From assembly GCA_964538685.1 (NCBI GenBank), contig CAZIFD010000004.1, positions 1 through 62,270 of the forward strand: a stretch of 62,270 nucleotides of DNA, read 5' to 3'. Source of the stretch: an uncultured Bdellovibrionales bacterium. Lineage in GTDB: Bacteria; Patescibacteriota; Minisyncoccia; Moranbacterales; UBA2206. The notes beneath the pieces were generated by a model. That model was not told the origin of the DNA, made no database searches, and saw only the letters and a program-made list of their open reading frames with translations. The translations under genes and the position numbers were made by a program. Positions 5,516 to 54,985 of the stretch are shown one piece after another (within the stretch, counting starts at the first letter, position 1; each line of letters starts with the position of its first letter).

Positions 5516-7456
5516 TTATTTTTTATCTTCTTCCGAAGAAATATCCTCCTTTTTTTCCGTCTCAGCATCTTTCACCTCTCCTTCCTTCGGCTGTTCACCG
5601 GCTGAAGGTGCTTCTTGTTCATTTTTCTGTCCGCTTTGAGCAGAAGCAGTCTGAGCCGCTTCATAAAGTTTTTGTCCGATCTTTTGAGCTTCTTGAGAAA
5701 GTTCGTCAGAAGCTTTTTTAATCGCTTCTATATCATCTCCGTCTTTAACTTTCTTAAGCGCTTCAATCTTTTCTTCAACCGGTTTTTTTTCGTCAGCTGT
5801 AATTTTATCACCCGCTTCCTTCAAAGCTTTTTCAGTAGTGAAAACAAGAGTATCAGCCATATTTTTCGCTTCAACCGCTTCTTTTTTCTTTTTGTCTTCC
5901 TCTGCATGAGCTTCAGCATCTTGCTTCATTTTTTCTATTTCTTCTTTGGAAAGTCCGCTTGAAGCTTCAATGCGAATAGATTGCTCTTTACCTGTCGCTT
6001 TGTCCTTGGCTTTCACCGACAAAATTCCATTGGCGTCAATGTCAAAAGAAACTTCCACTTGAGGAATTCCTCTTGGAGCTGGTGGAATACCATCCAAAAT
6101 AAATCTTCCCAAAGTCTTATTGTCGGCCGCCATTTCTCTTTCCCCTTGAAGTACATGAATTTCAACTGAAGACTGATTGTCAGCTGCAGTGGAAAAGATT
6201 TGGGATTTGGAAGCTGGAATGGTGGTGTTCCGATCAATGAGAGGAGTTCTCACACCACCCATAGTTTCAATTCCGAGCGTTAGCGGAGTAACATCCAAAA
6301 GCAAAACATCCTTGACATCGCCTTGTAAAACTCCACCTTGAATAGCTGCGCCAAGTGCCACTACTTCGTCCGGATTGACACTGGCATTTGGTTTTTTACC
6401 AAAAAATTCTTCCACTTTCTTTTGTACCAATGGCATTCTGGTCATTCCTCCAACCATCACCACTTCATTTATGTCTCCAGTGGAAAGTTTGGCATCTGCA
6501 AGAGCTTTTTTGCAAGGTTCAATAGATTTTTCAACTAAATCCATTACCAACTCTTCCAATTTTGCCCTAGTAAGTTTCATTACCAAATGCTTAGGACCAT
6601 CAACTCCAGAAGTTATAAAAGGCTGATTAATTTCCGTCTCCATTGCTGTTGAAAGTTCAATTTTGGCCTTTTCAGCTGATTCCTTAATTCTCTGAAGGGC
6701 CAGTGAATCCTTGGAAAGATCAACTCCTTCCTGTTTTTTAAATTCATCAAGAATCCAATTAATTACTCGCTCGTCAAAATCATCTCCACCCAAAAAGGTG
6801 TCTCCGTTGGTGGATTTCACTTCTACCGTATCTCCTCCAACCTCAAGAATTGAGATATCAAAAGTTCCACCTCCAAGGTCATAAACAGCAATTTTTTCGT
6901 CATTTTTCTTATTGAATCCATAAGCTAGAGCGGCAGCTGTTGGTTCATTAATAATTCGTCGCACCTTGAGTCCGGCAATCTCTCCGGCATCTTTGGTGGC
7001 TTTTCTTTGTGAATCGTCAAAATAAGCTGGCACTGTGATTACTGCTTCTTCAATTTTTTCCCCCAATTTTTCTTCTGCATCCGCTTTTAACTTCTGAAGT
7101 ACCATAGCAGATATTTCAGCCGGTCTATATTCTTTTCCGTCCATTACAATATTCACTGAACCATTATTTCCTTCTTTCACTTCAAAAGGGAAAGTTTTGA
7201 TGGATTTTTGAACTTCTGGATCACTAAATTTGCGACCAATTAGACGCTTAGCCGAAAAAATAGTGTTTCCCGGATTGGTAACCGCTTGCCTTTTAGCCAG
7301 AAGCCCCACCAATCTTTCTCCGTTTTTGGAAATAGCTACAATGGAAGGTGTAGTTCTGTTTCCCTCTTTGTTTTCAACTATATTAGGACTACCACCTTCA
7401 ACCACAGACATAGCCGAGTTGGTAGTTCCAAGATCAATTCCGAGTATTTTACTCAT
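5516..7456 (-). CDS. dnaK: Chaperone DnaK
   Basis: [23 protein letters not shown] Hsp70 signatures. Confidence 0.99.
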
Positions 7457-7525
7457 AATATTTGAGCGATATATAACACCATTTGATGTAATATCCGCTT
7501 GATTAAATTAATTTGCTAGCTATTT

Positions 7526-7596
7526 TGTCATTCCTGACCTGATTGGGAATCCAGTCAATAATTTTTTGTATGAATTCCGCTTTCGCAAGAATGATA
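7526..7596. repeat. Inverted pair of REP-like palindromes between grpE and dnaK
   Basis: tgtcattcctgacctgattgggaatccag ... tgaattccgctttcgcaagaatgata. Confidence 0.7.
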
Positions 7597-7599
7597 CCT

Positions 7600-8478
7600 T
7601 TATTTCACTATCACTTTCACCGCCCGAATCACTCTGTCTCCAATCTTATATCCTTTCTGCGCAATTTTAGTGATTTTGTTATTATTTTCTGTATCCTTAT
7701 TCGCTTCTTTCGTGTCTATTTCCAAAGCTTCATGAATCTCCGGATTGAATTCATCTCCCACTTTTGTTTCTATCTCCATTACGCTATTTTCTTTCAAAAT
7801 ATTTTCAAGTTGCGTTTTAATGTGATTAATTCCAACCACCCAAGCTCCGTCTTTTTCTTTTTCCGGAACATGAAGAAGCGAAGCTTCAAAATTATCCACA
7901 ACCGGCAGAATTTCTAAAATAATTCTTTCTTTGGAAAATTGTTCAGCTTTTCTTTGAACTTCCAGCTGTCTTTTCTTATAGTTTTCAAAATCAGCTAGAC
8001 ATCGCTGCCAACCGGATAAATATTCATCTTTCTTTTTTTCTTCTAAATATCTTTCAATAATCGTTTTGGTGCCAATAGCAATGTCCATCTTGAACGCTCC
8101 TTCCGGATCCACCCAAACAAATTCGTCTTTCAAATATTCTTTTTCATCTAAATTTATTGCGTCTTTTTCCCCCTCATAACGACACAAAAAATCTGCAAAA
8201 ATAATATGTTTCTTTTCGGCAAGATCTTCTTGAAAAACGCTGTCTGAAAATCCGATTTTCTTTTCAATCAAAACTTCAATTCCGGCTTCTTTTTTTATTT
8301 CCCGAAGAATCACCTTTTCAAGAGTTTCTCCGAGCTCAATATTTCCTTCAAAAACAGTATATTTCTCATGGCACTTTTGATTTTTAGCCAACAAAATGAG
8401 CCCGTCTTGATTCATAATAAGCGCCCTTGCAATAACTTCAGGATGCGCACTTCTTTTAATTTCTTTTTTATTTTCCAT
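7600..8478 (-). CDS. grpE: NUDIX-like domain fused to nucleotide exchange factor GrpE
   Basis: N-term G-x5-E-x7-REIKKEAG (degenerate Nudix box); C-term GrpE motifs RCLADFENYKKR, LPVVDNFE, FNPEIHEA, GYKIGDRVIRAVKV. Confidence 0.9.
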   Translation of the reverse strand: MENKKEIKRSAHPEVIARALIMNQDGLILLAKNQKCHEKYTVFEGNIELGETLEKVILREIKKEAGIEVLIEKKIGFSDSVFQEDLAEKKHIIFADFLCRYEGEKDAINLDEKEYLKDEFVWVDPEGAFKMDIAIGTKTIIERYLEEKKKDEYLSGWQRCLADFENYKKRQLEVQRKAEQFSKERIILEILPVVDNFEASLLHVPEKEKDGAWVVGINHIKTQLENILKENSVMEIETKVGDEFNPEIHEALEIDTKEANKDTENNNKITKIAQKGYKIGDRVIRAVKVIVK

Positions 8479-8484
8479 GATTTA

Positions 8485-8514
8485 TGTTGCCATTCCCGAT
8501 TTGGGAAGATGACA
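8485..8514. repeat. Degenerate REP-like palindrome between hrcA and grpE
   Basis: tgttgccattcccgatttgggaagatgaca. Confidence 0.5.
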
Positions 8515-9252
8515 TTAAATAATATTTATAAAAATCACGACTCCCAAACTTCCGCCCAAAATTCCTTTCACAAATTCCAAAAGTGATTTATTTTTGGCGT
8601 ATTCCATTCTTTTGGGGCCAATAAGAGCTAAAATAGCCTTTTCCCCTTCTTTGTTTTTATAAGGAGAAACAACCATTGAACAATTGGAAATTTCTTTAAT
8701 TGGATTTTCTTTACCAATAAAAATTTGGGTTTTCCCCTCTTGAACTTTAGCGAAAATCTTATCAATATTCTCATCAATATAATCCAAAACTTCCACTATT
8801 CGGCAAAATTCATCTCTTTCTGAAAATTCTGGATTACTTAAAAGTTCCCGAATCCCGAAATCATAAACCTCTTTCTCGGTTCCAGTAATCGCCAAACTAC
8901 CACTAAAATTGGAAAGAACCTTGGCCATCGTCCGACTCATTCGTGATTGCTGGGCTTTGAGTTTTAGAAATTCGGTTTGTAGTTTTTTCTGTTCCGAAAA
9001 AGAAAGCACTTTGTCTTCCATAATCTCTTCCACGAAGTAGCGATAACCTTTGTCCGTCGGAATCCGTCCAGCGCTCGTATGAGGCTGAAAAAGAAATCCG
9101 ACCGCTTCCAAGTCCGCCATATCATTTCTAATAGTCGCTGAAGAAGCTTTGATGTGGTATTTTTCCACTAAAACCTTTGAACCGACCGGCTCAGCCGAAT
9201 CGGTATATTCTTTAATAACTGCCCCTAAAATTTTTCTTTGTCTTTCATTCAT
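8515..9252 (-). CDS. hrcA: Heat-inducible transcription repressor HrcA (short, 245 aa)
   Basis: EPVGSK, SSATIRNDMADLE, QPHTSAGRIPTDKGYR, IGPKRMEY; CIRCE upstream. Confidence 0.95.
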   Translation of the reverse strand: MNERQRKILGAVIKEYTDSAEPVGSKVLVEKYHIKASSATIRNDMADLEAVGFLFQPHTSAGRIPTDKGYRYFVEEIMEDKVLSFSEQKKLQTEFLKLKAQQSRMSRTMAKVLSNFSGSLAITGTEKEVYDFGIRELLSNPEFSERDEFCRIVEVLDYIDENIDKIFAKVQEGKTQIFIGKENPIKEISNCSMVVSPYKNKEGEKAILALIGPKRMEYAKNKSLLEFVKGILGGSLGVVIFINII

Positions 9253-9257
9253 CAGAT

Positions 9258-9335
9258 TGTCATTCCCGACCTGATCGGGAATCTAGTCATTAAGCTAAGC
9301 TATTTCGCTGGATTCCCGCTTACGCGGGAATGACA
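9258..9335. repeat. Inverted pair of REP/dRS3-like palindromes in hrcA leader
   Basis: tgtcattcccgacctgatcgggaatctag ... ctggattcccgcttacgcgggaatgaca (ATTCCC-N8-GGGAAT core). Confidence 0.8.
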
Positions 9336-9362
9336 GGAACAAACATTTTCATTACTGAAACC

Positions 9363-9404
9363 ATTATAAACAATAATTTAGCACTCGTCAAGCCTGAGTG
9401 CTAA
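9363..9404 (-). promoter_or_regulatory. sigma70 promoter overlapped by perfect CIRCE
   Basis: TTAGCACTC-gtcaagcct-GAGTGCTAA at 9378-9404; minus-strand TTGACG (9386-9391), 17 bp, TATAAT (9363-9368). Confidence 0.93.
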
Positions 9405-9417
9405 TTAAACTTTTTGG

Positions 9418-9699
9418 TTAATTTTTGGCTATTATTTCAACTTTTTTTGTTTTATGCTCATTTGCCGACGGACAAGGATCGTATCCCCCATCATTCCAAG
9501 GGTGGCACCGGCTTATCCTTTTTGAACCGAGATATATGCCTCTCAAAACCCCGAAACGCTTGATTGCTTGGATCGTATATTCACTGCAAGTCGGATAAAA
9601 ACGACAAGTGGCCGTTCCAAAATACTTGTGAGGAATGCCGTGATCAAAGGACAATGTTTTTTGATAAATCCTGATAATAAAAATAAAAAAACTCTTCAT
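9418..9699 (-). CDS. yidD: Membrane protein insertion efficiency factor YidD
   Basis: IRIYQKTLS, CRFYPTCSEY, RCHPWNDGGYDP. Confidence 0.93.
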   Translation of the reverse strand: MKSFFIFIIRIYQKTLSFDHGIPHKYFGTATCRFYPTCSEYTIQAIKRFGVLRGIYLGSKRISRCHPWNDGGYDPCPSANEHKTKKVEIIAKN

Positions 9700-15437: not shown

Positions 15438-15941
15438 CTAACGCTTCGCCCACTGCGGACTTCTTCGCGCTTTTTTGAAACCAGGCTTCTTTCTTTCCAC
15501 TACTCTTGAATCCCGAGTCAAAAATCCCAAATCCCGAAGAACTTTGCGGTAAACTTCGTCAAACCTCACAATTGCCCTGGAAACCGCCAATCGGAGAGCT
15601 TCGGCCTGAGAATTGACACCTCCGCCGGAAACCTTTCCCCAAACACCAAATTCTCCTCCAAGACCGGTTTTCTCAAAAGGCTCTTTCAAACAATCCCGAT
15701 GCCGTTCAATTGAAAAATAGGCATTCAAATCTTGATTATTAATCAAAACAGCCTTGCTTCCGCTTTTTTTAGTTGGAAACAGCTTAACTTGAGCAATGGA
15801 AGTCTTTCTTTTTCCCAAACCATAAAAATATTCCCCGGAAAATTCAAGCGTTTTTTTAGAAGTTTTCTTTTCAACAGGTTCCACTACTTCTTTCTTGGTT
15901 TTTTTTACAGTTGCAACTTTTTTTACTTTTTTCTCTGCCAT
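15438..15941 (-). CDS. rpsI: 30S ribosomal protein S9 (N-terminal extension)
   Basis: GKRKTSIA, GGGVNSQAEA, RVVERKKPGFKKARRSPQWAKR. Confidence 0.96.
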   Translation of the reverse strand: MAEKKVKKVATVKKTKKEVVEPVEKKTSKKTLEFSGEYFYGLGKRKTSIAQVKLFPTKKSGSKAVLINNQDLNAYFSIERHRDCLKEPFEKTGLGGEFGVWGKVSGGGVNSQAEALRLAVSRAIVRFDEVYRKVLRDLGFLTRDSRVVERKKPGFKKARRSPQWAKR

Positions 15942-15973
15942 ATAAATATATTATTTTTCCAACAATTTAAAAC

Positions 15974-16375
15974 TTAATGCGTAACTTCAATCTTATGTTC
16001 TTGTATCGCATCCTTATAAATATGTAACCTGGTCATCATTCTATCCCGAAGTTTGTTTTTGGGAAGCATTCCATAAACAGCAGACTTGATCACTTTGGTA
16101 GAATCTTTTTTCATTTGATCCTTAAGCGTTATAGACGAAACCCCTCCGGGATAACCGCTAAAACTGTGATAAATTTTTCCTTCCAGTTTGTTTCCGGTAG
16201 CTACTAATTTGTCAGTGTTTATTACTACAACAATATCTCCCCCGTCAATATTGGGAGTAAAATCAACCTTATCTTTTCCACGAAGAACCTTGACTATTTC
16301 CGTAGCCAATCTTCCAATCACCCTGCCCTCTGCATCAAAAAGATGATATTTCCGTTGAATGTTTTTTTTCGTCAT
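15974..16375 (-). CDS. rplM: 50S ribosomal protein L13
   Basis: DAEGRVIGRLAT, FTPNIDGGD, SGYPGG, GMLPKN. Confidence 0.96.
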   Translation of the reverse strand: MTKKNIQRKYHLFDAEGRVIGRLATEIVKVLRGKDKVDFTPNIDGGDIVVVINTDKLVATGNKLEGKIYHSFSGYPGGVSSITLKDQMKKDSTKVIKSAVYGMLPKNKLRDRMMTRLHIYKDAIQEHKIEVTH

Positions 16376-16411
16376 ATCGTTGTTGTTCTTGTTCTAAAAT
16401 TAGCTTGTCTC

Positions 16412-16780
16412 TTAGTTAACAAATTCTATAATTGCCATCTCTGCTCCATCACTTTTTCTTCTTTCTAATCGGATAATTCTGGTGTATCCGCTATTTCTGG
16501 ACTTAAATTTTTCCAAAAATTCTGGAGAAACAATTTTCTTAACCGCCATCTTTGGAATTAAATTATTAAGACTTCGGATGATAGCTACTCCGCCTGGTCC
16601 TTTTTCATATTTCTTAGCTTTGTTGATAATCTTGTCAATTAAGCCTTTAATTTCCTTAGCTTTCGCCTCGGTAGTTTCTATTTTTTCTTTCACAACTAAA
16701 CTGCCCAAAAGGGTTTTCAATAAAGCCTTTCTTTGCTTTCTCACTCTTCCTAATTCTCTTTTTTTCTTTAAATGCTTCAT
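16412..16780 (-). CDS. rplQ: 50S ribosomal protein L17
   Basis: IETTEAKAKE, RNSGYTRII, DGAEMAIIE. Confidence 0.96.
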   Translation of the reverse strand: MKHLKKKRELGRVRKQRKALLKTLLGSLVVKEKIETTEAKAKEIKGLIDKIINKAKKYEKGPGGVAIIRSLNNLIPKMAVKKIVSPEFLEKFKSRNSGYTRIIRLERRKSDGAEMAIIEFVN

Positions 16781-16803
16781 GACAATTAAAATCTAAAATC
16801 AAT

Positions 16804-17784
16804 TTATTCTTTCTTTAAATTAAACCCGAAATCTCCAATAGCTTTCTTAATTTCCTTGACTCCTTTTTCTCCCATTCCATCCAAATTTTTGAGTTGATCC
16901 TCGGTAAACTTCAAAATATCTTTAATTTTTGAAATCCCCTCTTTTTCAAAAACATTCAAAGTTCTGGTGGAAAGGCTTTTAAGCTCGGAAATCTCTAAAT
17001 TTTTATAATCCGCCTCTCTATCTTCATTGATTTTTTCGTGATTTTCCGCCGGTTCTCTGACAATTTCAGCAACTTTTTCTTCTTTTTCCGCCGAAAATTC
17101 GTCCAATGAGGTTAGCACCGAAAATTGATCAACCATGATTTGAACTGCTTTAGAAAAAGCCTCTTCAGGAGTCATACTGCCATCGGTAACAACCTCCAAA
17201 TTTATCTTTTCAAAATCAGTTCTTTTTCCAACTCGCATATTATCAATAGTATAGTTTACCCTTCTGATAGGAGTATAAATAGCATCTACAGCAATTACAC
17301 CGACTTCCTTTTTTTCTCTTTCCTGTTGTTCAACCGGAACATAACCAATTCCACTAGATACTTCCATTTCCATTTCAAACTCACCTTTAGGATTGGTGAT
17401 GGTCGCAATAGGAGCATCTCCATTAACTACTGAAATCTGACTTGGACATTCAATCATTGAAGCTGTGATAATCTTTTCTCCTTTAACTTTCAAGGCCACC
17501 TTAACCGGCTCGTCAGAATGCATCTCAAATCTGACTTTTTTTAAGTTAAGAATAATTTGAATAACATCTTCCAAAACATTGGGGATAGTTGAAAATTCAT
17601 GAGATACTCCCTTAATTTTAACTGAAGTTATGGCTGCTCCGGGAAGAGATGACAAAAGAACTCTTCTGAGAGCGTTTCCCAAAGTCGTTCCATAGCCAGG
17701 ATAACAACCTTCAATTACAAAATTGCTGGCGTTGTTGTCAATCTTCACAAATTTAGGCTTTTGAGGAAGTGTTATGGATTGCAT
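16804..17784 (-). CDS. rpoA: RNA polymerase alpha subunit
   Basis: GYGTTLGNALRRVLLSS, HEFSTIP, DAIYTPI, TDGS, C-terminal HhH. Confidence 0.98.
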   Translation of the reverse strand: MQSITLPQKPKFVKIDNNASNFVIEGCYPGYGTTLGNALRRVLLSSLPGAAITSVKIKGVSHEFSTIPNVLEDVIQIILNLKKVRFEMHSDEPVKVALKVKGEKIITASMIECPSQISVVNGDAPIATITNPKGEFEMEMEVSSGIGYVPVEQQEREKKEVGVIAVDAIYTPIRRVNYTIDNMRVGKRTDFEKINLEVVTDGSMTPEEAFSKAVQIMVDQFSVLTSLDEFSAEKEEKVAEIVREPAENHEKINEDREADYKNLEISELKSLSTRTLNVFEKEGISKIKDILKFTEDQLKNLDGMGEKGVKEIKKAIGDFGFNLKKE

Positions 17785-49019: not shown

Positions 49020-49102
49020 CAAAGCAAAACAATTTTCTTTCAATTTTTTATCGCCCGCCCGCCAAATTTTTCTTAAAAGGAATTGAAAATTGTTTTGCTT
49101 TG
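49020..49102 (+). repeat. 83 bp unit U (18 bp terminal inverted arms), copy 1
   Basis: caaagcaaaacaattttc-47 nt-gaaaattgttttgctttg; copies at 54903-54985 (identical, minus) and 60213-60295 (3 substitutions, minus). Confidence 0.95.
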
Positions 49103-49246
49103 ACGTCTTGATACCAAGACGGCGGAAACGCTTCGCTACGCCAATTTTATTTTTCGGGCGGGGCGGAAAAAAAGGGGGGGTCTGGGGGGAATTCCGCCCC
49201 GCCCTCTCTTTTCCGCTTTCACTTTTTTCGCTGGCGCTGGAGGCCG
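49020..49246 (+). repeat. Left arm of perfect 227 bp inverted repeat bounding cassette 1 (partner 54759-54985)
   Basis: Exact reverse complement, including homopolymer lengths A7, G7, G6. Confidence 0.95.
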
Positions 49247-49270: not shown

Positions 49271-50086
49271 TTATAATTTTTTTATTGTTTCCGATCCGTT
49301 GGTAGAAATTATTACTGGAGCGACGCCTTTTGTTCCAATAACATATGTTGCCACATTTACTATTTCTCCCTTTTTAGCAAATTGAGCCATTGCTCCGGTC
49401 GTCATCACTACTTTCGGAGGCATGGGGACTGCATAAGTATCAGCGACACCACCCTTTGAAGAATTGTAAACCGAAACCGATTGATATTTCTCAACGCTAG
49501 CTTTGGTCATTATATTGCCTGGCAATTCAGCACTTCCCTGCAGACAATCAGGATGTGTTTTGTTAATTTTTAATCCTAAAATCAGTGACGAAATAAAAAG
49601 GCGTTTTATCTCTTTACGATCTCTTGCTAAAGTTTCGGAATCTTTAACATCCCTTATTTTTTTATTTCCGTATTCGATATCCAACCTGCTCTCAATTAAA
49701 TTATCCTTATTCTTGTCAGGGTCAAACCCTAAATCAAAAATCGGAAATTTGTTTTGTTTGTATAATGCAACTTCCTTTTCATTAAGTAACGTTCTTGTTA
49801 TTAAACACGTTAAATCTCCTTTTTCCAAAAATTTGGATAAACTTCCTCTTGCTTCAACCTTTCTATTATCTTCCCCTTCAATTACAAATGTCTTTATCCT
49901 GTTTATCCAATTATTACCGTTAATTTTTGTTACTATTACTTGTTCCCATGGCAAAATATCGCTTTTTCTTAAAATGCCTTTTGGAATTACCAAGCCCTCG
50001 GCAATTTCGTCCTGTTTAAAAGTATTCCTGCAATTGGTGATAACAAGGTTGTGGATAGCGCTTCTTTTGAAAATTATTTCTTTCAT
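49271..50086 (-). CDS. Tandem double PanD-like (pyruvoyl decarboxylase fold) protein
   Basis: Domain 1 RSAIH...DILPWEQV...NRIKTFVI...GD; domain 2 QGSAELP...DTYAV...GAMAQ...GE, with the Gly-Ser cleavage motif only in domain 2. Confidence 0.75.
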   Translation of the reverse strand: MKEIIFKRSAIHNLVITNCRNTFKQDEIAEGLVIPKGILRKSDILPWEQVIVTKINGNNWINRIKTFVIEGEDNRKVEARGSLSKFLEKGDLTCLITRTLLNEKEVALYKQNKFPIFDLGFDPDKNKDNLIESRLDIEYGNKKIRDVKDSETLARDRKEIKRLFISSLILGLKINKTHPDCLQGSAELPGNIMTKASVEKYQSVSVYNSSKGGVADTYAVPMPPKVVMTTGAMAQFAKKGEIVNVATYVIGTKGVAPVIISTNGSETIKKL

Positions 50087-50186
50087 AAAATTCAGCATTA
50101 CCTTATCACATTGCGCAATATAAGTAATTTTTAAAAATTAAATCCTATGCAATTATAATACGTCTTTTTCTATAAAAAATCAATGA

Positions 50187-50676
50187 AAACCACTAGCTTA
50201 TACGCTAGTGGTTTCTATCCTGCCGTCTAACGACGGCTAGAACAACTTGAGGTTTTCCATATCTACCTGTCGGTTGCTTTGGTTTTGAATATACTTACGG
50301 ATGGCAAATTCATTGATGCCAATGGTAGAAACAAAGTAGCCCCGTGCCCAGAGACTGCCTTTGGGGAATTTTTTAGGCGGTATGACAAGATACAAGTGTA
50401 TATGCTCGTCGCCAATGTGCCATTCGAGAATTTTAATCCCCTTCCATTTGGCAATGAACTTGAATATTCTCTTAAGTTCTAGTTTAATGTAAGTATCTGC
50501 CATTACCTTGCCTCGGTATCTGGGAGTCCAAACTACATGATACTGACAACAGTAAGTGCAGTGCTCTAGTTTATAGAGTTTGGTCAACATAAAATCACCT
50601 CCTTGCTAGTGGGTGATTTTATTATATTCCAAGAGCTAACGCTCTAAACGCACACACCGGCTGACGCCGGTGGTTT
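50187..50676 (-). mobile_element. IS200/IS605-family element, transposase-only, internally deleted
   Basis: tnpA ORF flanked by hairpins aaaccactagc-ttatac-gctagtggttt (50187-50214) and accggc-tgac-gccggt (50656-50671); exact ends uncertain. Confidence 0.7.
50237..50590 (-). pseudogene. tnpA: IS200-type Y1 transposase TnpA with in-frame internal deletion
   Basis: YHVVWTPRYR, HUH motif EHIHL, LWARGYFVSTIG, KYIQNQ; segment normally between IPPK and FP is missing. Confidence 0.8.
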
Positions 50677-50691
50677 ATCTGGTTAAAAAAA

Positions 50692-50727: not shown

Positions 50728-52260
50728 TTAGAGTCTGCGCGTTACAGACCTTCCCAAGCGCTCATTGATGGATTTCACCTTGCGGTGCATTTCATCAAGT
50801 AACGCATTCGGGTATGGCCATACCCCCGTCTTCCGAGAGAATAAACAATGCTCGAACGGCGCAGTCGGGTAGAGCTGCCGCCACGAACGCCGATATTCTC
50901 GCGTGACAGGAGAGAGGGTCAGAAAGATCGCTTGGTGCAAGAATTGCTGCTCAAGACACTCTGTGATGAATCGGAAAGTTTCTTCCAATTCGCACGGCCT
51001 TTCGGCAGGCTGTCCATTTGTTTCGGGAAAACCGCCTATGAAAAAGCCCTCACGATTGGTCGTTTGCAGATTCTCCTTGGCAAACTCGAGAACTTTCCGC
51101 ACCACAGACAAGGTATGCGGCTTTCTTATCATGCGAAGTACTCTGTCGTTTCCGTTCTCGCATGGAAACGCGATGTGCCGTACATTGCCGTTCTGACTGA
51201 ATTGCCGGAGCAACCGGAAGTTTTCCCTAGTCATTGACTCGAAAGTAAGGCCGTTGGAAAATCCGATCTGGTACCCCGCGCTGGCTACTTGAGAAAGAAT
51301 CTCAAAAGCCAAGTCGCGAGAGGAGTTGTTTCCGCCGCCGAAATTGTTGTCCATAAAGTCAATGTAGTTGATGCCGAAAAGGCAATCAAACTCATTGATG
51401 ATTTCCATGGTGTTCTCGACAGCGTACCTTACGAGCCGCTTATCTGTGTCGCAAAAACTGCAGTCAAAACCGCAACCGTACGACGTCAGAAGTGGCAGGT
51501 AGGCAACAGGCCCCTGAATGCCAAGGATGGTACCGATTCGTCCGGCGTGAGGATTACCGACAAAGGAGTAAAGATCCAATGCTTTTTCCCTCCCAACAAC
51601 TTCCACTCGCGGAAGCAAGTTGTAGTCGGGAATTGCGAAATGATCGGGTTGAAACTCGGACAGACCGGAAAATTCAACACGACCATTGAATCTGCGAGCC
51701 ACTCCTTGCGGCAAGTTACCCATAGCTGGTTCGTCAAAACAGCGTAGTAGAGAAGTTATCACCGGCTGACCCGGGCCAACAACGACATAGTCAATTGCCG
51801 GAATTTCTCCGATAGGAAACGGAGTATTGCCGAGGATTTCTTCGTACCACTGCGAAGCTTCATGTCCGCCCAGAATAATGGGCGTTGCAGGAAATGCTTC
51901 CTTCAGGGCCTTAGTTGTTTTTGCCACTTCGCCTCGATCAACTACCGTGCAACAGCTCATGCCGATCACATCCGGCTCACGCTTGACCACTTCGTCTACG
52001 ATCTCCTCGATCCGCAGTCCAGTTTTCCAGTAAGGAATCCCGTCAAGTTCCTCAATCGCTACCGGATTATAGGAAGAATCAAGGATACCTTTTTTTAAAC
52101 CCTCGGCCGCCGCGTCAAAGAGAAATGCTTCGTAGCCATTTCTTTTGGCTTCCGCCAAAACAGAAATGGCTCCCAATGGCGGGTGAATGCGGGGCGGAGT
52201 TCCAGCTGGAGAGACTGCGCGAGGTGTTACAATGACAAACCTCTCTATCTTTCGTTTCAT
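50728..52260 (-). CDS. B12-binding-domain radical SAM enzyme
   Basis: PPLG, PDVIGMSC, IILGGHEAS, CGFDCSFC, DNNF, CENG, FFIGGFP. Confidence 0.9.
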   Translation of the reverse strand: MKRKIERFVIVTPRAVSPAGTPPRIHPPLGAISVLAEAKRNGYEAFLFDAAAEGLKKGILDSSYNPVAIEELDGIPYWKTGLRIEEIVDEVVKREPDVIGMSCCTVVDRGEVAKTTKALKEAFPATPIILGGHEASQWYEEILGNTPFPIGEIPAIDYVVVGPGQPVITSLLRCFDEPAMGNLPQGVARRFNGRVEFSGLSEFQPDHFAIPDYNLLPRVEVVGREKALDLYSFVGNPHAGRIGTILGIQGPVAYLPLLTSYGCGFDCSFCDTDKRLVRYAVENTMEIINEFDCLFGINYIDFMDNNFGGGNNSSRDLAFEILSQVASAGYQIGFSNGLTFESMTRENFRLLRQFSQNGNVRHIAFPCENGNDRVLRMIRKPHTLSVVRKVLEFAKENLQTTNREGFFIGGFPETNGQPAERPCELEETFRFITECLEQQFLHQAIFLTLSPVTREYRRSWRQLYPTAPFEHCLFSRKTGVWPYPNALLDEMHRKVKSINERLGRSVTRRL

Positions 52261-52312: not shown

Positions 52313-53566
52313 TCAGGTGGTTGAACTACCGCTTTTCCGCATTGTCTCATAGAGGCAGTTGGGATCCTGCTGATCGTAGTTGCCCCAGAAGTAGAAGCGA
52401 TTAGCTGGACATTCGTTTTTACAGAGACGATTGCAGCTATCGCATTCGCGGGGTTGACGAATCGCCCGAACGGTTTGGAATTTATTCCCGACTTTTCCTT
52501 GCCAAAAATCTCTGATGGTTCCATCTTGGTAGATTTTCCCAAAAGAGAAGGTTGGCCCGAAGAAAACGCAGGGACTTATCTTGCCGTTGGCGTCAATGTG
52601 CATGGAACGGTTAGCCGCTCCGCACATTCGTCCGCGCAAGAGTTTCTGCAACACCCCAGCTGGCTGGCTGAACATCATGCCTTCGTCCATCAGCACATAC
52701 GGTAGCACTTTTGGGCTATTAAGGTATTCCAGTACCTTGAGATAACGCGGGGAGTCTTGAGGGCTTAGCATTGTTTGATTATGCACAGCCCTGCCGGCCG
52801 GCCTGCAGTAGGAGAATTTGATTTTTACTCCTCTGCTTCTAGCCAGTTCTACTAACTCCGGCACATTATCCAAGTTTTGTGGTAACAGCGTAGTCCGCAA
52901 AAGTACATTGACGCCGCCTTCCTTGAGTGTTTCAAGAGCGGCGAGTGCTTTCCGGAAATGACCAGAACCACGCAAGCTGTCATTGACCGCTTCCATGCCC
53001 TCAATACTTACCGAGGTGCGAATTTTGGCATTAGCAAGCAAGTCAACTGTTTGCGGGGTTACTACTGCACTGTTCGTGCTGATTGTGAGAAAACATCCGG
53101 CTGAACGGAGCAGGTTAATGATGATTTCAAAATCAGGATGAAGAAAAGGATCGCCACCGCCGATTTTGACGTACATAACACCCAGCTTCTGAATTTCCGC
53201 CGCAAGTTTCTTAATTGTCGCCACGGGCAAAGATGTTTTTAGGCCTCGTCCCGCTTCCGACAAACAGAAAGGACATTGGAGCGAACACGCCAGCGTGATG
53301 TCGAGGTAAATCTTGAACGGAGCCGAATAGGCGTTTAGGACTGGCGAATTGTGAACAATCCGAACTGCCTTGTCACTTAATTTCTGCCCGACAAACTGTC
53401 CGATAAGATCGGGCTGTGCCGAATCGAAGGGAATCCACTGCGGAGATTGCAAAGTATGAACTTTCAACACTCCGCTATTGGAATCAAACTCCACCAGTTT
53501 ATCGACTTCCTCCTCTCGTAAAGAGGAAAAGCCGAAGCTGGTGTTTTCCAGCCTTATGATCTTCAT
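52313..53566 (-). CDS. Radical SAM enzyme with SPASM domain
   Basis: CSLQCPFC, GGDPF, STN, CGAA...ISPC, CDSC-x3-C-x3-C. Confidence 0.92.
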   Translation of the reverse strand: MKIIRLENTSFGFSSLREEEVDKLVEFDSNSGVLKVHTLQSPQWIPFDSAQPDLIGQFVGQKLSDKAVRIVHNSPVLNAYSAPFKIYLDITLACSLQCPFCLSEAGRGLKTSLPVATIKKLAAEIQKLGVMYVKIGGGDPFLHPDFEIIINLLRSAGCFLTISTNSAVVTPQTVDLLANAKIRTSVSIEGMEAVNDSLRGSGHFRKALAALETLKEGGVNVLLRTTLLPQNLDNVPELVELARSRGVKIKFSYCRPAGRAVHNQTMLSPQDSPRYLKVLEYLNSPKVLPYVLMDEGMMFSQPAGVLQKLLRGRMCGAANRSMHIDANGKISPCVFFGPTFSFGKIYQDGTIRDFWQGKVGNKFQTVRAIRQPRECDSCNRLCKNECPANRFYFWGNYDQQDPNCLYETMRKSGSSTT

Positions 53567-53581: not shown

Positions 53582-54232
53582 TCAGTCGAGAATTCGGGAA
53601 GTCAGTATGTCTGCTTTCAGGCAACGGGCGGCGGCGATGGCCGTACCAATCGGCTTGAGAATTCCGTCATCGGGCAGATCAATCCTTGATGTGATTTTTC
53701 CGCCTGCTTTTTGGAATTCTTTGACTGACATTGGCTTTTCCGCTATCTGCAAAAGCAATTCTGCTTCCAGCTCAATGAGAGCAGGGTCGTCGATCGGCCT
53801 AATCTCGCCAGAGGTAAATCTTCCAGCATAGATCAGGACATTAGTGAACGGTTTGCGGCCGGCTTCGGCGCGCGGACTGCGAAAGATAATGATAGGCAGA
53901 GGCTCATTCGTCAGATCGGTAGCAAGATATATTTTTTCAATGGACTCCGAGTCCATCAAAATTGTCTCATCGCCGTGATGATCCGCGATGTCCACGTCTG
54001 ACCCAACTTCCTCAATCGCTTCCCGATGCAACGAAGCACCTGGCAATTCGTTCGGTTCCAGTTTTCCACCAATCCCGCCAAAAGGCAGGATTGAAATACC
54101 CTCTTCGGTCTTACCCCAACGGTGGGGTTGCTTTAAAGTAAAGCAGAAACCGAAGCCGCGGGTTGCTAGCAAACCAGTCCCCAGATCCGCTTCGGGATCC
54201 TGAAGAAACTGTTCCAGTTTATGCTCATTCAT
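53582..54232 (-). CDS. NUDIX hydrolase
   Basis: Perfect Nudix box GKLEPNELPGASLHREAIEEVG; start reassigned to MNEHK with AGAGGA RBS. Confidence 0.9.
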   Translation of the reverse strand: MNEHKLEQFLQDPEADLGTGLLATRGFGFCFTLKQPHRWGKTEEGISILPFGGIGGKLEPNELPGASLHREAIEEVGSDVDIADHHGDETILMDSESIEKIYLATDLTNEPLPIIIFRSPRAEAGRKPFTNVLIYAGRFTSGEIRPIDDPALIELEAELLLQIAEKPMSVKEFQKAGGKITSRIDLPDDGILKPIGTAIAAARCLKADILTSRILD

Positions 54233-54365
54233 TTCTGTATCCTCTTTAGGTTTTTGGTTGTCAATGTGCTCACCAGAACGCTCTAGCTTGACGTTGTATT
54301 TTATAGCAAAAAGGCGTATTTTGTCAAGGATATTGTGTATTTTAGAGATAAATGGATTCATAAGC

Positions 54366-54575
54366 TTATTTGAGCAAAATATCAACAGAAACACCTAATG
54401 CTTTGGCAATTCTTTGAACAGTATCAATAGTCGGGCTTTGTATTCCGCCCGATTCAATTTTAATAATTGTGGCATGAGCCACATCTGCCAATCTTGCAAG
54501 TTTGTCTTGCGATAAACCTTTTTCCTTGCGGTATTTCTTTATGTTTTTTGCAATAGTTGGAATTATTTTTGACAT
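54366..54575 (-). CDS. XRE-family HTH regulator (cassette 1)
   Basis: NIKKYRKEKGLSQDKLA...IIKIESG...PTIDTVQRIAKALGV. Confidence 0.93.
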   Translation of the reverse strand: MSKIIPTIAKNIKKYRKEKGLSQDKLARLADVAHATIIKIESGGIQSPTIDTVQRIAKALGVSVDILLK

Positions 54576-54758: not shown

Positions 54759-54985
54759 CGGCCTCCAGCGCCAGCGAAAAAAGTGAAAGCGGAAAAGAGA
54801 GGGCGGGGCGGAATTCCCCCCAGACCCCCCCTTTTTTTCCGCCCCGCCCGAAAAATAAAATTGGCGTAGCGAAGCGTTTCCGCCGTCTTGGTATCAAGAC
54901 GTCAAAGCAAAACAATTTTCAATTCCTTTTAAGAAAAATTTGGCGGGCGGGCGATAAAAAATTGAAAGAAAATTGTTTTGCTTTG
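54759..54985 (-). repeat. Right arm of 227 bp inverted repeat of cassette 1 (includes U copy 2 at 54903-54985)
   Basis: Reverse complement of 49020-49246. Confidence 0.95.

Follow-up and report, generated by a model that had tools for sequence, protein, structure and literature searches.

Aspartate 1-decarboxylase, PanD (EC 4.1.1.11; PF02261; structures 1PPY and 1AW8 from Escherichia coli and 2C45 from Mycobacterium tuberculosis), is the textbook case of an active site shared by identical subunits. Each site lies between two subunits, one of which contributes the cofactor residue Pyr25 together with Thr57, Tyr58, and the backbone of Ala74 and Ala75, and the other Arg54 and Lys9 (PMC3314653, PMC6969166). 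Arg54, which is supplied in trans, binds the distal carboxylate of the substrate, i.e., the aspartate side chain (PMC6969166), and Lys9 pairs with the substrate alpha-carboxylate. Thr57 is required for activation (PMC3975893), and Ile86 and the Leu20-Gly24 loop are described near the active site (PMC3975893, PMC6969166). Thirteen residues of PanD are strictly conserved: Lys9, His11, Tyr22, Gly24, Ser25, Arg54, Thr57, Tyr58, Gly73, Ala74, Ala75, Ile86, and Asn112 (PMC3314653). Here we describe PanD2, a protein encoded in a 62,270-nucleotide (nt) stretch of DNA (the window; contig CAZIFD010000004.1, positions 1 to 62,270, of assembly GCA_964538685.1) from an uncultured bacterium of the order Moranbacterales (Patescibacteriota). 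In contrast to the four identical subunits of PanD, each of ~125 amino acids (aa), PanD2 has two barrels in one 275-aa chain, and each barrel holds half of the catalytic set. We consider it reasonably probable that PanD2 amounts to a "heterodimer" of the PanD fold within one chain, with a catalytic C-terminal half, an N-terminal half that donates residues to it, and a role as a decarboxylase outside the synthesis of coenzyme A (CoA).

Two PanD-like repeats and a divided set of active-site residues

The open reading frame (ORF) for PanD2 extends from position 49271 to 50098 on the minus strand and encodes 275 aa, the form in which all residues are numbered. A second ATG lies at 50086, and because most homologs begin at the corresponding MKEII..., the true protein is likely to start there and to be 271 aa long. 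The N-terminal half (residues 1 to 128, positions 49715 to 50098) is a PanD-like barrel that lacks the cleavage serine and keeps His16, Arg67, and the invariant Cys98. A structured, confidently modeled linker or insert (residues 129 to 165, positions 49604 to 49714) joins it to the C-terminal half (residues 166 to 275, positions 49274 to 49603), a second PanD-like barrel, which carries the cis catalytic residues and the putative site of processing.

An earlier note on this DNA, made from the sequence alone, had claimed two PanD-like repeats, and profile, sequence, and structure comparisons all bear this out. The Pfam family PF02261 (Asp_decarbox) matches the whole protein in two stretches (67.9 bits, E = 8.9e-19; gathering threshold, 25 bits) and scores 35.8 and 35.6 bits on the separate halves in a genome-wide scan (cut-off, 25). 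A phmmer search of the Protein Data Bank (PDB) aligns residues 35 to 116 and 177 to 254 to different PanD chains. With hhalign, the N-terminal half matches PanD at 98.7% (E = 4e-16) and the C-terminal half at 98.2% (E = 5e-14), against 96.4% for the two halves with each other, which share 18% identity. Because each half is nearer to PanD than to the other half, the duplication or fusion appears to be old.

The AlphaFold2 model of the chain, built from a 34-sequence alignment, has a pLDDT of 94.5 and a pTM of 0.91. Strands and helices follow one another in the same order in the two halves, which are joined by a structured linker of ~40 residues. When this model is searched with Foldseek, the top 20 PDB matches are all PanD, with TM scores (target) of 0.79 to 0.87 and root mean square deviations mostly of 1.5 to 2 Å over ~115 columns. 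Structure prediction was one of the checks that the earlier note had proposed, and it finds double-psi beta-barrels in both halves, leaving the idea unrefuted. All significant fold or sequence matches (Pfam, phmmer against the PDB, Foldseek) are to PanD, and none is to S-adenosylmethionine decarboxylase (AdoMetDC). The lowest-confidence internal blocks of the model are residues 61 to 70, the loop of Arg67, and residues 181 to 190, the cleavage loop; this would suit, rather than prove, mobile active-site loops.

Residues were mapped in a MAFFT alignment of E. coli PanD and three further PanDs with the two halves of each of 34 family members (PanD residues carry E. coli numbers), and the hhalign register agrees with this mapping. 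The C-terminal half retains the residues that PanD supplies in cis: Gly188-Ser189 (codons GGA-AGT, positions 49532 to 49537, minus strand), the predicted self-cleavage and pyruvoyl site, in place of Gly24-Ser25; Thr221-Tyr222 (49433 to 49438, minus strand) in place of Thr57-Tyr58; and the G-A-x-A loop, G235-A236-M237-A238, in place of Gly73-Ala76. At these positions the N-terminal half has E34-G35, with no nucleophile, T70-F71, and G85-S86-L87, respectively. The Gly-Ser dipeptide of the N-terminal half, G85-S86, thus aligns with Gly73-Ala74, away from the cleavage site.

The N-terminal half retains the counterpart of Arg54, Arg67 in the motif NRIKTF (codon AGG, positions 49898 to 49900, minus strand), and that of His11, His16. 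The corresponding residues of the C-terminal half are V218, which is variable, and L174. Elsewhere, Lys9 is replaced by A14 and L172 in the N- and C-terminal halves, respectively, Asn72 by R84 and T234, and Ile86 by C98 and N248. The earlier note had placed the Gly-Ser site and the T-Y motif only in the second repeat and the arginine and the N-terminal histidine only in the first, and the alignment agrees on each count. Its premise that Arg54 comes from the neighboring subunit is also correct (PMC3314653, PMC6969166). Because the C-terminal half keeps the cis residues of PanD and the N-terminal half keeps the equivalent of Arg54, for which origin in trans is documented (for His11 it is assumed), the pattern of retention supports a putative composite site formed from the cis face of one half and the trans face of the other.

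The division of residues holds across 138 non-identical relatives of PanD2, down to 23% identity. In the C-terminal half, Ser189 is conserved in 136 of 137 sequences, Gly188 in 134 of 137, Thr221 in 135 of 137 (the other 2 having serine), and Tyr222 in 137 of 137; in the N-terminal half, Arg67 is conserved in 137 of 137, and His16 and Lys11 each in 132 of 133. Two cysteines, Cys98 and Cys185 (codon at 49544-49546, minus strand), are present in 137 of 137. The N-terminal half's own cis-face residues (E34, G35, T70, F71, G85, and S86) are also highly conserved, and the second, degenerate interface may bind something. Among 12 close relatives, dN/dS is 0.07 in the N-terminal half, 0.15 in the linker, and 0.10 in the C-terminal half. 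The "dead" N-terminal half is not decaying, and both halves are under purifying selection. The pseudo-heterodimer proposed in the earlier note thus finds support in sequence and fold, in a near-invariant split of residues, and in the selection acting on both repeats.

By analogy with PanD, we infer the cleavage, the formation of the pyruvoyl group, the oligomer, the reaction, and the substrate as follows. The C-terminal barrel would be the catalytic repeat, in which the chain rearranges at Gly188-Ser189 with the help of Thr221 and is cleaved into a beta chain of ~21 kDa and an alpha chain of ~9 kDa, the N-terminal serine of the alpha chain becoming the pyruvoyl group. The calculated masses, which depend on the start codon, are 30.3 to 30.8 kDa for the proenzyme, 21.3 to 21.8 kDa for the part up to residue 188, and 9.0 kDa for residues 189 to 275. 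Tyr222 would be the proton donor, and the backbone of Ala236 and Met237 would bind the alpha-carboxylate of the substrate. The N-terminal barrel, having lost its serine, would supply Arg67 for a distal anionic group, as well as His16 and probably Cys98, if these too come from the neighboring barrel as assumed. Each live site would then combine the cis face of a C-terminal half with the trans face of an N-terminal half, and two chains could come together as a PanD-like ring, N-C-N'-C', in which two sites are live and two degenerate. The predicted reaction is the alpha-decarboxylation of an amino acid, or of an amino-acid moiety, with a distal anionic group, and free aspartate for CoA synthesis is probably not the substrate. 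The pathway would be an accessory one, encoded on a mobile cassette with two radical S-adenosylmethionine (radical-SAM) enzymes, one with a SPASM domain and one that binds B12, and a NUDIX hydrolase.

Distance from canonical PanD

PanD2 belongs to the PanD superfamily by its fold and Pfam domain and lies outside the PanD equivalog. The NCBIfam model of that equivalog, TIGR00223, gives PanD2 31 bits (E = 1.9e-7), short of its cut-off of 106. When the two halves are pooled, Lys9, Tyr22, and Ile86 of the 13 strictly conserved residues are missing, and Ala75 is replaced by Met or Leu. Asn112 aligns to Glu270, which is not conserved, in the C-terminal half and cannot be placed in the N-terminal half. 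Either half alone has at most 6 of the 13. PanD2 shares with the equivalog its fold and, in the C-terminal half only, Gly-Ser and Thr57, and departs from it in score, residue set, subunit format, and the company of panC.

The genome from which the window comes is 860 kb in 21 contigs, is rated 100% complete, and is of the size usual for the Candidate Phyla Radiation (CPR). It contains no match to panC (PF02569, pantoate-beta-alanine ligase), for which control genomes were matched, and a PF02261 scan finds no second PanD in it. A canonical PanD that serves CoA synthesis was rejected on the TIGR00223 score and the absence of panC. Because PanD2 sits by two radical-SAM genes on a mobile cassette, its product is probably something other than beta-alanine for CoA. 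The suggestion in the earlier note of a substrate other than aspartate is favored by the loss or replacement of Lys9, Tyr22, Asn72, and Ile86, along with the TIGR00223 shortfall, the lack of panC, and the non-pantothenate contexts of the gene.

The family is rare. Searched exhaustively with HMMER, 1.84 billion representative proteins yield 39 clusters at E <= 1e-3; canonical PanDs surface only at E ~1e-4, and there are no nearer single-domain relatives. About 140 homologs are 240 to 330 aa long, as opposed to the ~115 to 140 aa of a PanD subunit. A naturally split, two-gene PanD2 was considered and rejected, the short matches being fragments or frameshifted pieces. In viral contigs there are no phage-borne copies. 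Public databases label the homologs "aspartate 1-decarboxylase" by automatic annotation, and because they occur in organisms without pantothenate synthesis, this label is probably wrong or incomplete. In our searches of the open-access literature, neither a tandem PanD nor a cluster of PanD with radical-SAM genes turned up. One homolog (P0102) has tryptophan in place of each conserved glycine of the family (e.g., CLQWSAELPW and MTTWAMA). Its host most likely reads TGA as glycine (code 25, as in Gracilibacteria/Absconditabacteria), the sequence having been translated with TGA as tryptophan.

The cassette and related gene contexts

PanD2 lies in a 5.5-kb cassette bracketed by a 227-nt inverted repeat whose arms, at 49020 to 49246 and 54759 to 54985, are 100% complementary. 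Related arms lie after PanD2 in two other loci (L006 and L023) and make up the two ends of contig L007. Cassettes with 88 to 97% identity occur in bins labeled Falkowbacteria, Gracilibacteria, Magasanikiibacteria, and Gammaproteobacteria, although binning errors may account for some of these labels, and within the window's order the gene occurs in a single genome out of 201. The PanD2 cluster is horizontally mobile. In the window lineage (and in L022, L027, L031, and L040), the G+C content at third codon positions is 0.29 to 0.37 in PanD2, 0.47 to 0.62 in its radical-SAM neighbors, and ~0.5 in the NUDIX gene. Because PanD2 differs in this way from its neighbors, unlike in other lineages, where G+C content is uniform across the cluster, the cluster in the window lineage is suggested to be a recombinant mosaic.

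The other genes of the cassette are, like PanD2, on the minus strand. Two encode its conserved partners: a 510-aa B12-binding radical-SAM enzyme (50728 to 52260), with weak matches to P- and C-methyltransferase families, and a 417-aa radical-SAM/SPASM enzyme (52313 to 53566), which among named families is closest to the mycofactocin maturase MftC (150 bits; cut-off, 265) and in which Pfam finds no PqqD-like domain. The cluster often has a fourth member, here a gene for a NUDIX-like hydrolase (53582 to 54394; probable start near 54232) whose Nudix box, GKLEPNELPGASLHREAIEEVG, is intact, and a small helix-turn-helix ORF, judged by eye to be XRE-like, heads the cassette (54366 to 54575). A motif scan for a precursor-like small ORF (K-P-[ST]...C-G) finds none in this cassette or in the other loci with the same type of cluster. 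Among the PADLOC anti-phage models, PanD2 has no match, and its neighbors have only weak, generic radical-SAM matches.

Between PanD2 and the gene for the B12-binding enzyme lies a 495-bp IS200-derived insertion (50190 to 50684) that contains a truncated IS200/IS605 transposase remnant (a 117-aa ORF, 50237-50590). The insertion is absent from the closest relatives, cassettes of 91 to 97% identity, and at this position two loci (L025 and L026) carry a different one, of ~1.1 kb. Upstream of PanD2 are a terminator-like hairpin (50215-50186) and a promoter-like site (50183-50155), both being consensus matches only.

Comparison of 70 related loci by tblastn and Pfam yields four recurring contexts (the taxon labels of metagenomic bins are unverified), and in most loci PanD2 is linked to two radical-SAM genes, in several gene orders. 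Type A, that of the window, is found in ~25 loci from CPR and elsewhere and combines PanD2 with the radical-SAM/SPASM and B12-binding radical-SAM genes, often with the NUDIX hydrolase, in at least three gene orders and with overlapping genes in some. In type B, from ~10 loci in human-gut and other metagenomes, PanD2 is followed by a conserved ORF of 43 to 55 aa, an ABC exporter, and two other radical-SAM enzymes. The small ORF (L021 3375-3521; L052 2417-2548; L053 1287-1421; L057 10824-10991; L066 10802-10963) has the pattern M-x-I-[IV]-x-K-P-[ST]-...-V-x-x-C-G.... In one locus the exporter and radical-SAM genes lie beside agrB. In one homolog (P0115; L071 4504-5481), represented on three contigs, the small ORF is fused in frame to the C terminus of PanD2. 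The type B cluster looks like a ribosomal-peptide cluster, and its small ORF like the precursor of a peptide made on the ribosome and modified after translation (a RiPP). An alignment in MAFFT of the gut small peptides to the N-terminal-half segment ...V-x-x-C-G-S... was dropped because it was not significant in a shuffle test (z <= 1.6).

In type C, PanD2 occurs with methyltransferases and transporters (an archaeal bin, L049, and L002, the last with PEMT-type enzymes) or, in Streptomyces, with PGM1-like and other ATP-grasp ligases. In Streptomyces flavusporus (L017 1262-3211) the neighbors are a fused B12 glutamate (methylaspartate) mutase, a TauD dioxygenase, two ATP-grasp ligases, a pyridoxal phosphate (PLP) enzyme, and a methyltransferase, which suggests that the substrate of this homolog is 3-methylaspartate or a related acid. 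In type D, a small GNAT acetyltransferase adjoins PanD2 (L015 7560-7976, from Coriobacteriales; L050 about 1051-1680). PanZ/PanM, the activator of E. coli PanD, has a GNAT fold; the type D protein recalls it or may instead N-acetylate the amine product. The catalytic residues are retained in all four contexts. Because homologs occur without radical-SAM genes, this distribution argues that PanD2 would itself be an enzyme, and more than a scaffold for the radical-SAM enzymes or something that they act on. Partners such as methylases, acylases, ligases, and exporters suit an amine-forming step in specialized metabolism.

A gene for leucyl-tRNA synthetase (LeuRS) adjoins the cluster of PanD2 and radical-SAM genes, on either side, in at least five differently arranged CPR loci (L001 11586-16810; L004 8977-11400; L018 3438-5855; L031 3221-5680; L033 3777-6215; also L038 and L046), and one of them (L001) has two LeuRS paralogs, 54% identical, within 5 kb. 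No consistent tRNA gene that would explain the adjacency is found beside the clusters. It could reflect synteny, or it could hint at a LeuRS-related product or an immunity gene. In a gut locus (L057), an AT-rich cluster of type B interrupts a GC-rich pyruvate phosphate dikinase region (6460-9565 and 15440-17324), and the 3' part of the dikinase gene and a membrane-protein gene are repeated on both sides of the cluster. The arrangement reflects either an assembly artifact or an insertion accompanied by a large duplication.

Alternative readings and comparison with known systems

Several features of PanD2 weigh against its being a divided pyruvoyl decarboxylase. By alignment, the equivalent of Lys9 is missing from both halves, the near-invariant Lys11 lying three residues upstream, and Tyr22, Asn72, and Ile86 are replaced; given these changes, the chemistry of PanD2 may differ from that of PanD. 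The two cysteines, which are invariant in the family and absent from PanD, hint at another mechanism: Cys98 is at the Ile86 position of the N-terminal half, and Cys185 is an insertion in the loop equivalent to Leu20-Gly24, four residues before Ser189. In one subfamily (P0133, P0141, and P0144), Met-Ser replaces Gly-Ser at the predicted cleavage site (C-I-E-M-S-A-E-L-P), together with Ser-Tyr for Thr-Tyr and I-S-G-A-L for M-T-T-G-A-M, and a distant member (P0151) is without the cleavage serine. The small peptide gene beside or fused to PanD2 could mean a peptide-directed or non-catalytic role.

Four other explanations account for parts of these data. PanD2 might be a genuine L-aspartate alpha-decarboxylase in a fused format, making beta-alanine for a beta-alanine-derived metabolite rather than for pantothenate. 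The equivalents of Gly-Ser, Thr-Tyr, and Arg54 are all retained, the public annotation names this activity, and the methyltransferase or GNAT neighbors in some lineages would suit the modification of a small amine. We nonetheless think it unlikely, in view of the low TIGR00223 score, the replacement of Lys9, Tyr22, Asn72, and Ile86, the lack of a conserved equivalent of Asn112, the new residue Trp64 and two invariant cysteines, and the S. flavusporus neighbor, a glutamate mutase, which would yield 3-methylaspartate rather than aspartate. It is still less probable that PanD2 is a pyruvoyl enzyme of another kind, which carries out a reductive cleavage, a transamination-like reaction, or an elimination with its two cysteines. 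The pyruvoyl-dependent proline and glycine reductases are precedents, and the cysteines occupy positions that in PanD are near the active site (Ile86 and the Leu20-Gly24 loop), and Lys9 is missing; these reductases, however, differ from PanD in fold, no reductase partners or selenoprotein genes are nearby, and both Tyr222, the proton donor for decarboxylation, and the backbone loop that binds the alpha-carboxylate are strictly retained.

The linkage to radical-SAM genes admits two further explanations, both of which we regard as improbable. PanD2 could be a non-catalytic adaptor that binds a small ligand or a peptide and presents it to the pair of radical-SAM enzymes, much as a recognition element does in peptide maturation. 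Its tight linkage with overlapping radical-SAM genes, the conserved small ORF downstream of it in gut-type clusters, which P0115 carries as a fusion (three contigs), and the conserved "dead" cis face of the N-terminal half would all fit. A non-catalytic role makes it hard to explain why exactly the catalytic Ser, Thr, Tyr, and Arg are near-invariant, and homologs exist without any radical-SAM gene, and the small peptide gene is missing from the window cassette and other type A loci. We consider an adaptor very unlikely. The least probable of the four is that the radical-SAM enzymes act on PanD2: following self-cleavage, the SPASM and B12 enzymes would modify its newly formed chain ends or its invariant cysteines into a protein-derived cofactor. 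SPASM enzymes usually modify peptides or proteins, MftC has a C-terminal residue as its target, the C terminus exposed by cleavage would be an invariant ...H-P-D-C-L-Q-G, and the window cassette has no separate precursor peptide. Against this, the invariant residues persist without radical-SAM neighbors in Streptomyces, Coriobacteriales, and the archaeal bin, and we know of no precedent for such a substrate.

In a bolder extension of the favored reading, that of a divided decarboxylase, PanD2 may put the PanD fold to a new use. As a pyruvoyl decarboxylase, it would trim an amino-acid "handle" (aspartyl-, phosphoseryl-, or aminocarboxypropyl-like, with a free amine and carboxylate) that is attached to a larger scaffold built by the two radical-SAM enzymes, this scaffold being a ribosomal peptide in gut-type clusters and a nucleotide-derived molecule in the CPR clusters that contain NUDIX. 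The outcome would be an undescribed class of natural product, spread among ultra-small bacteria by a mobile element, and this product might target leucyl-tRNA synthetase, the gene for which repeatedly flanks the cluster, sometimes in two copies. We hold this scenario as a whole to be unlikely. The pairing with two radical-SAM enzymes does point to uncharacterized chemistry, with a RiPP-like peptide in gut bacteria and NUDIX in CPR, and PanD2, being small and soluble-looking, offers an easy experimental entry point.

A role for a PanD homolog outside CoA synthesis has a parallel in CrpG, the beta-methylaspartate alpha-decarboxylase of cryptophycin biosynthesis, a single-domain member of the PanD family that acts on an aspartate analog in secondary metabolism. 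The S. flavusporus homolog of PanD2, which adjoins a glutamate (methylaspartate) mutase, resembles it in this respect; we know of no radical-SAM partners described for CrpG. With PanD itself, PanD2 shares the double-psi beta-barrel and an active site apparently drawn from two barrels, with the Gly-Ser site, Thr57, Tyr58, and the G-A-A loop in the C-terminal half and Arg54 and His11 in the N-terminal half. Unlike PanD, it has two new invariant cysteines and is tied to radical-SAM genes on a mobile cassette, in a genome without panC. PanD2 would be the first described form of PanD that is fused and sub-functionalized.

A dead partner beside a live one is also seen in pyruvoyl enzymes of unrelated fold. 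In Trypanosoma, a dead paralog, the prozyme, is reported to be needed beside the live pyruvoyl subunit of AdoMetDC (PMC5201418), a loose likeness; there the two are separate genes and the dead partner is allosteric, whereas in PanD2 one chain holds both, and the active site appears to be completed by the dead repeat. The closest analog in design, as far as analogy extends, is the eukaryotic class 2 AdoMetDC, which consists of two fused class 1b repeats with one cleavage site and one cofactor (PMC10407285). There, too, an enzyme that functioned as an oligomer of identical protomers underwent duplication and fusion, after which a single repeat retained self-cleavage. Its fold, an alpha-beta-beta-alpha sandwich, is unrelated to that of PanD2, and it is the N-terminal repeat that is live, whereas in PanD2 the C-terminal repeat is predicted to be live and the dead repeat would still donate conserved active-site residues. 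PanD2 would thus parallel, in an unrelated fold, the evolution of the eukaryotic AdoMetDC.

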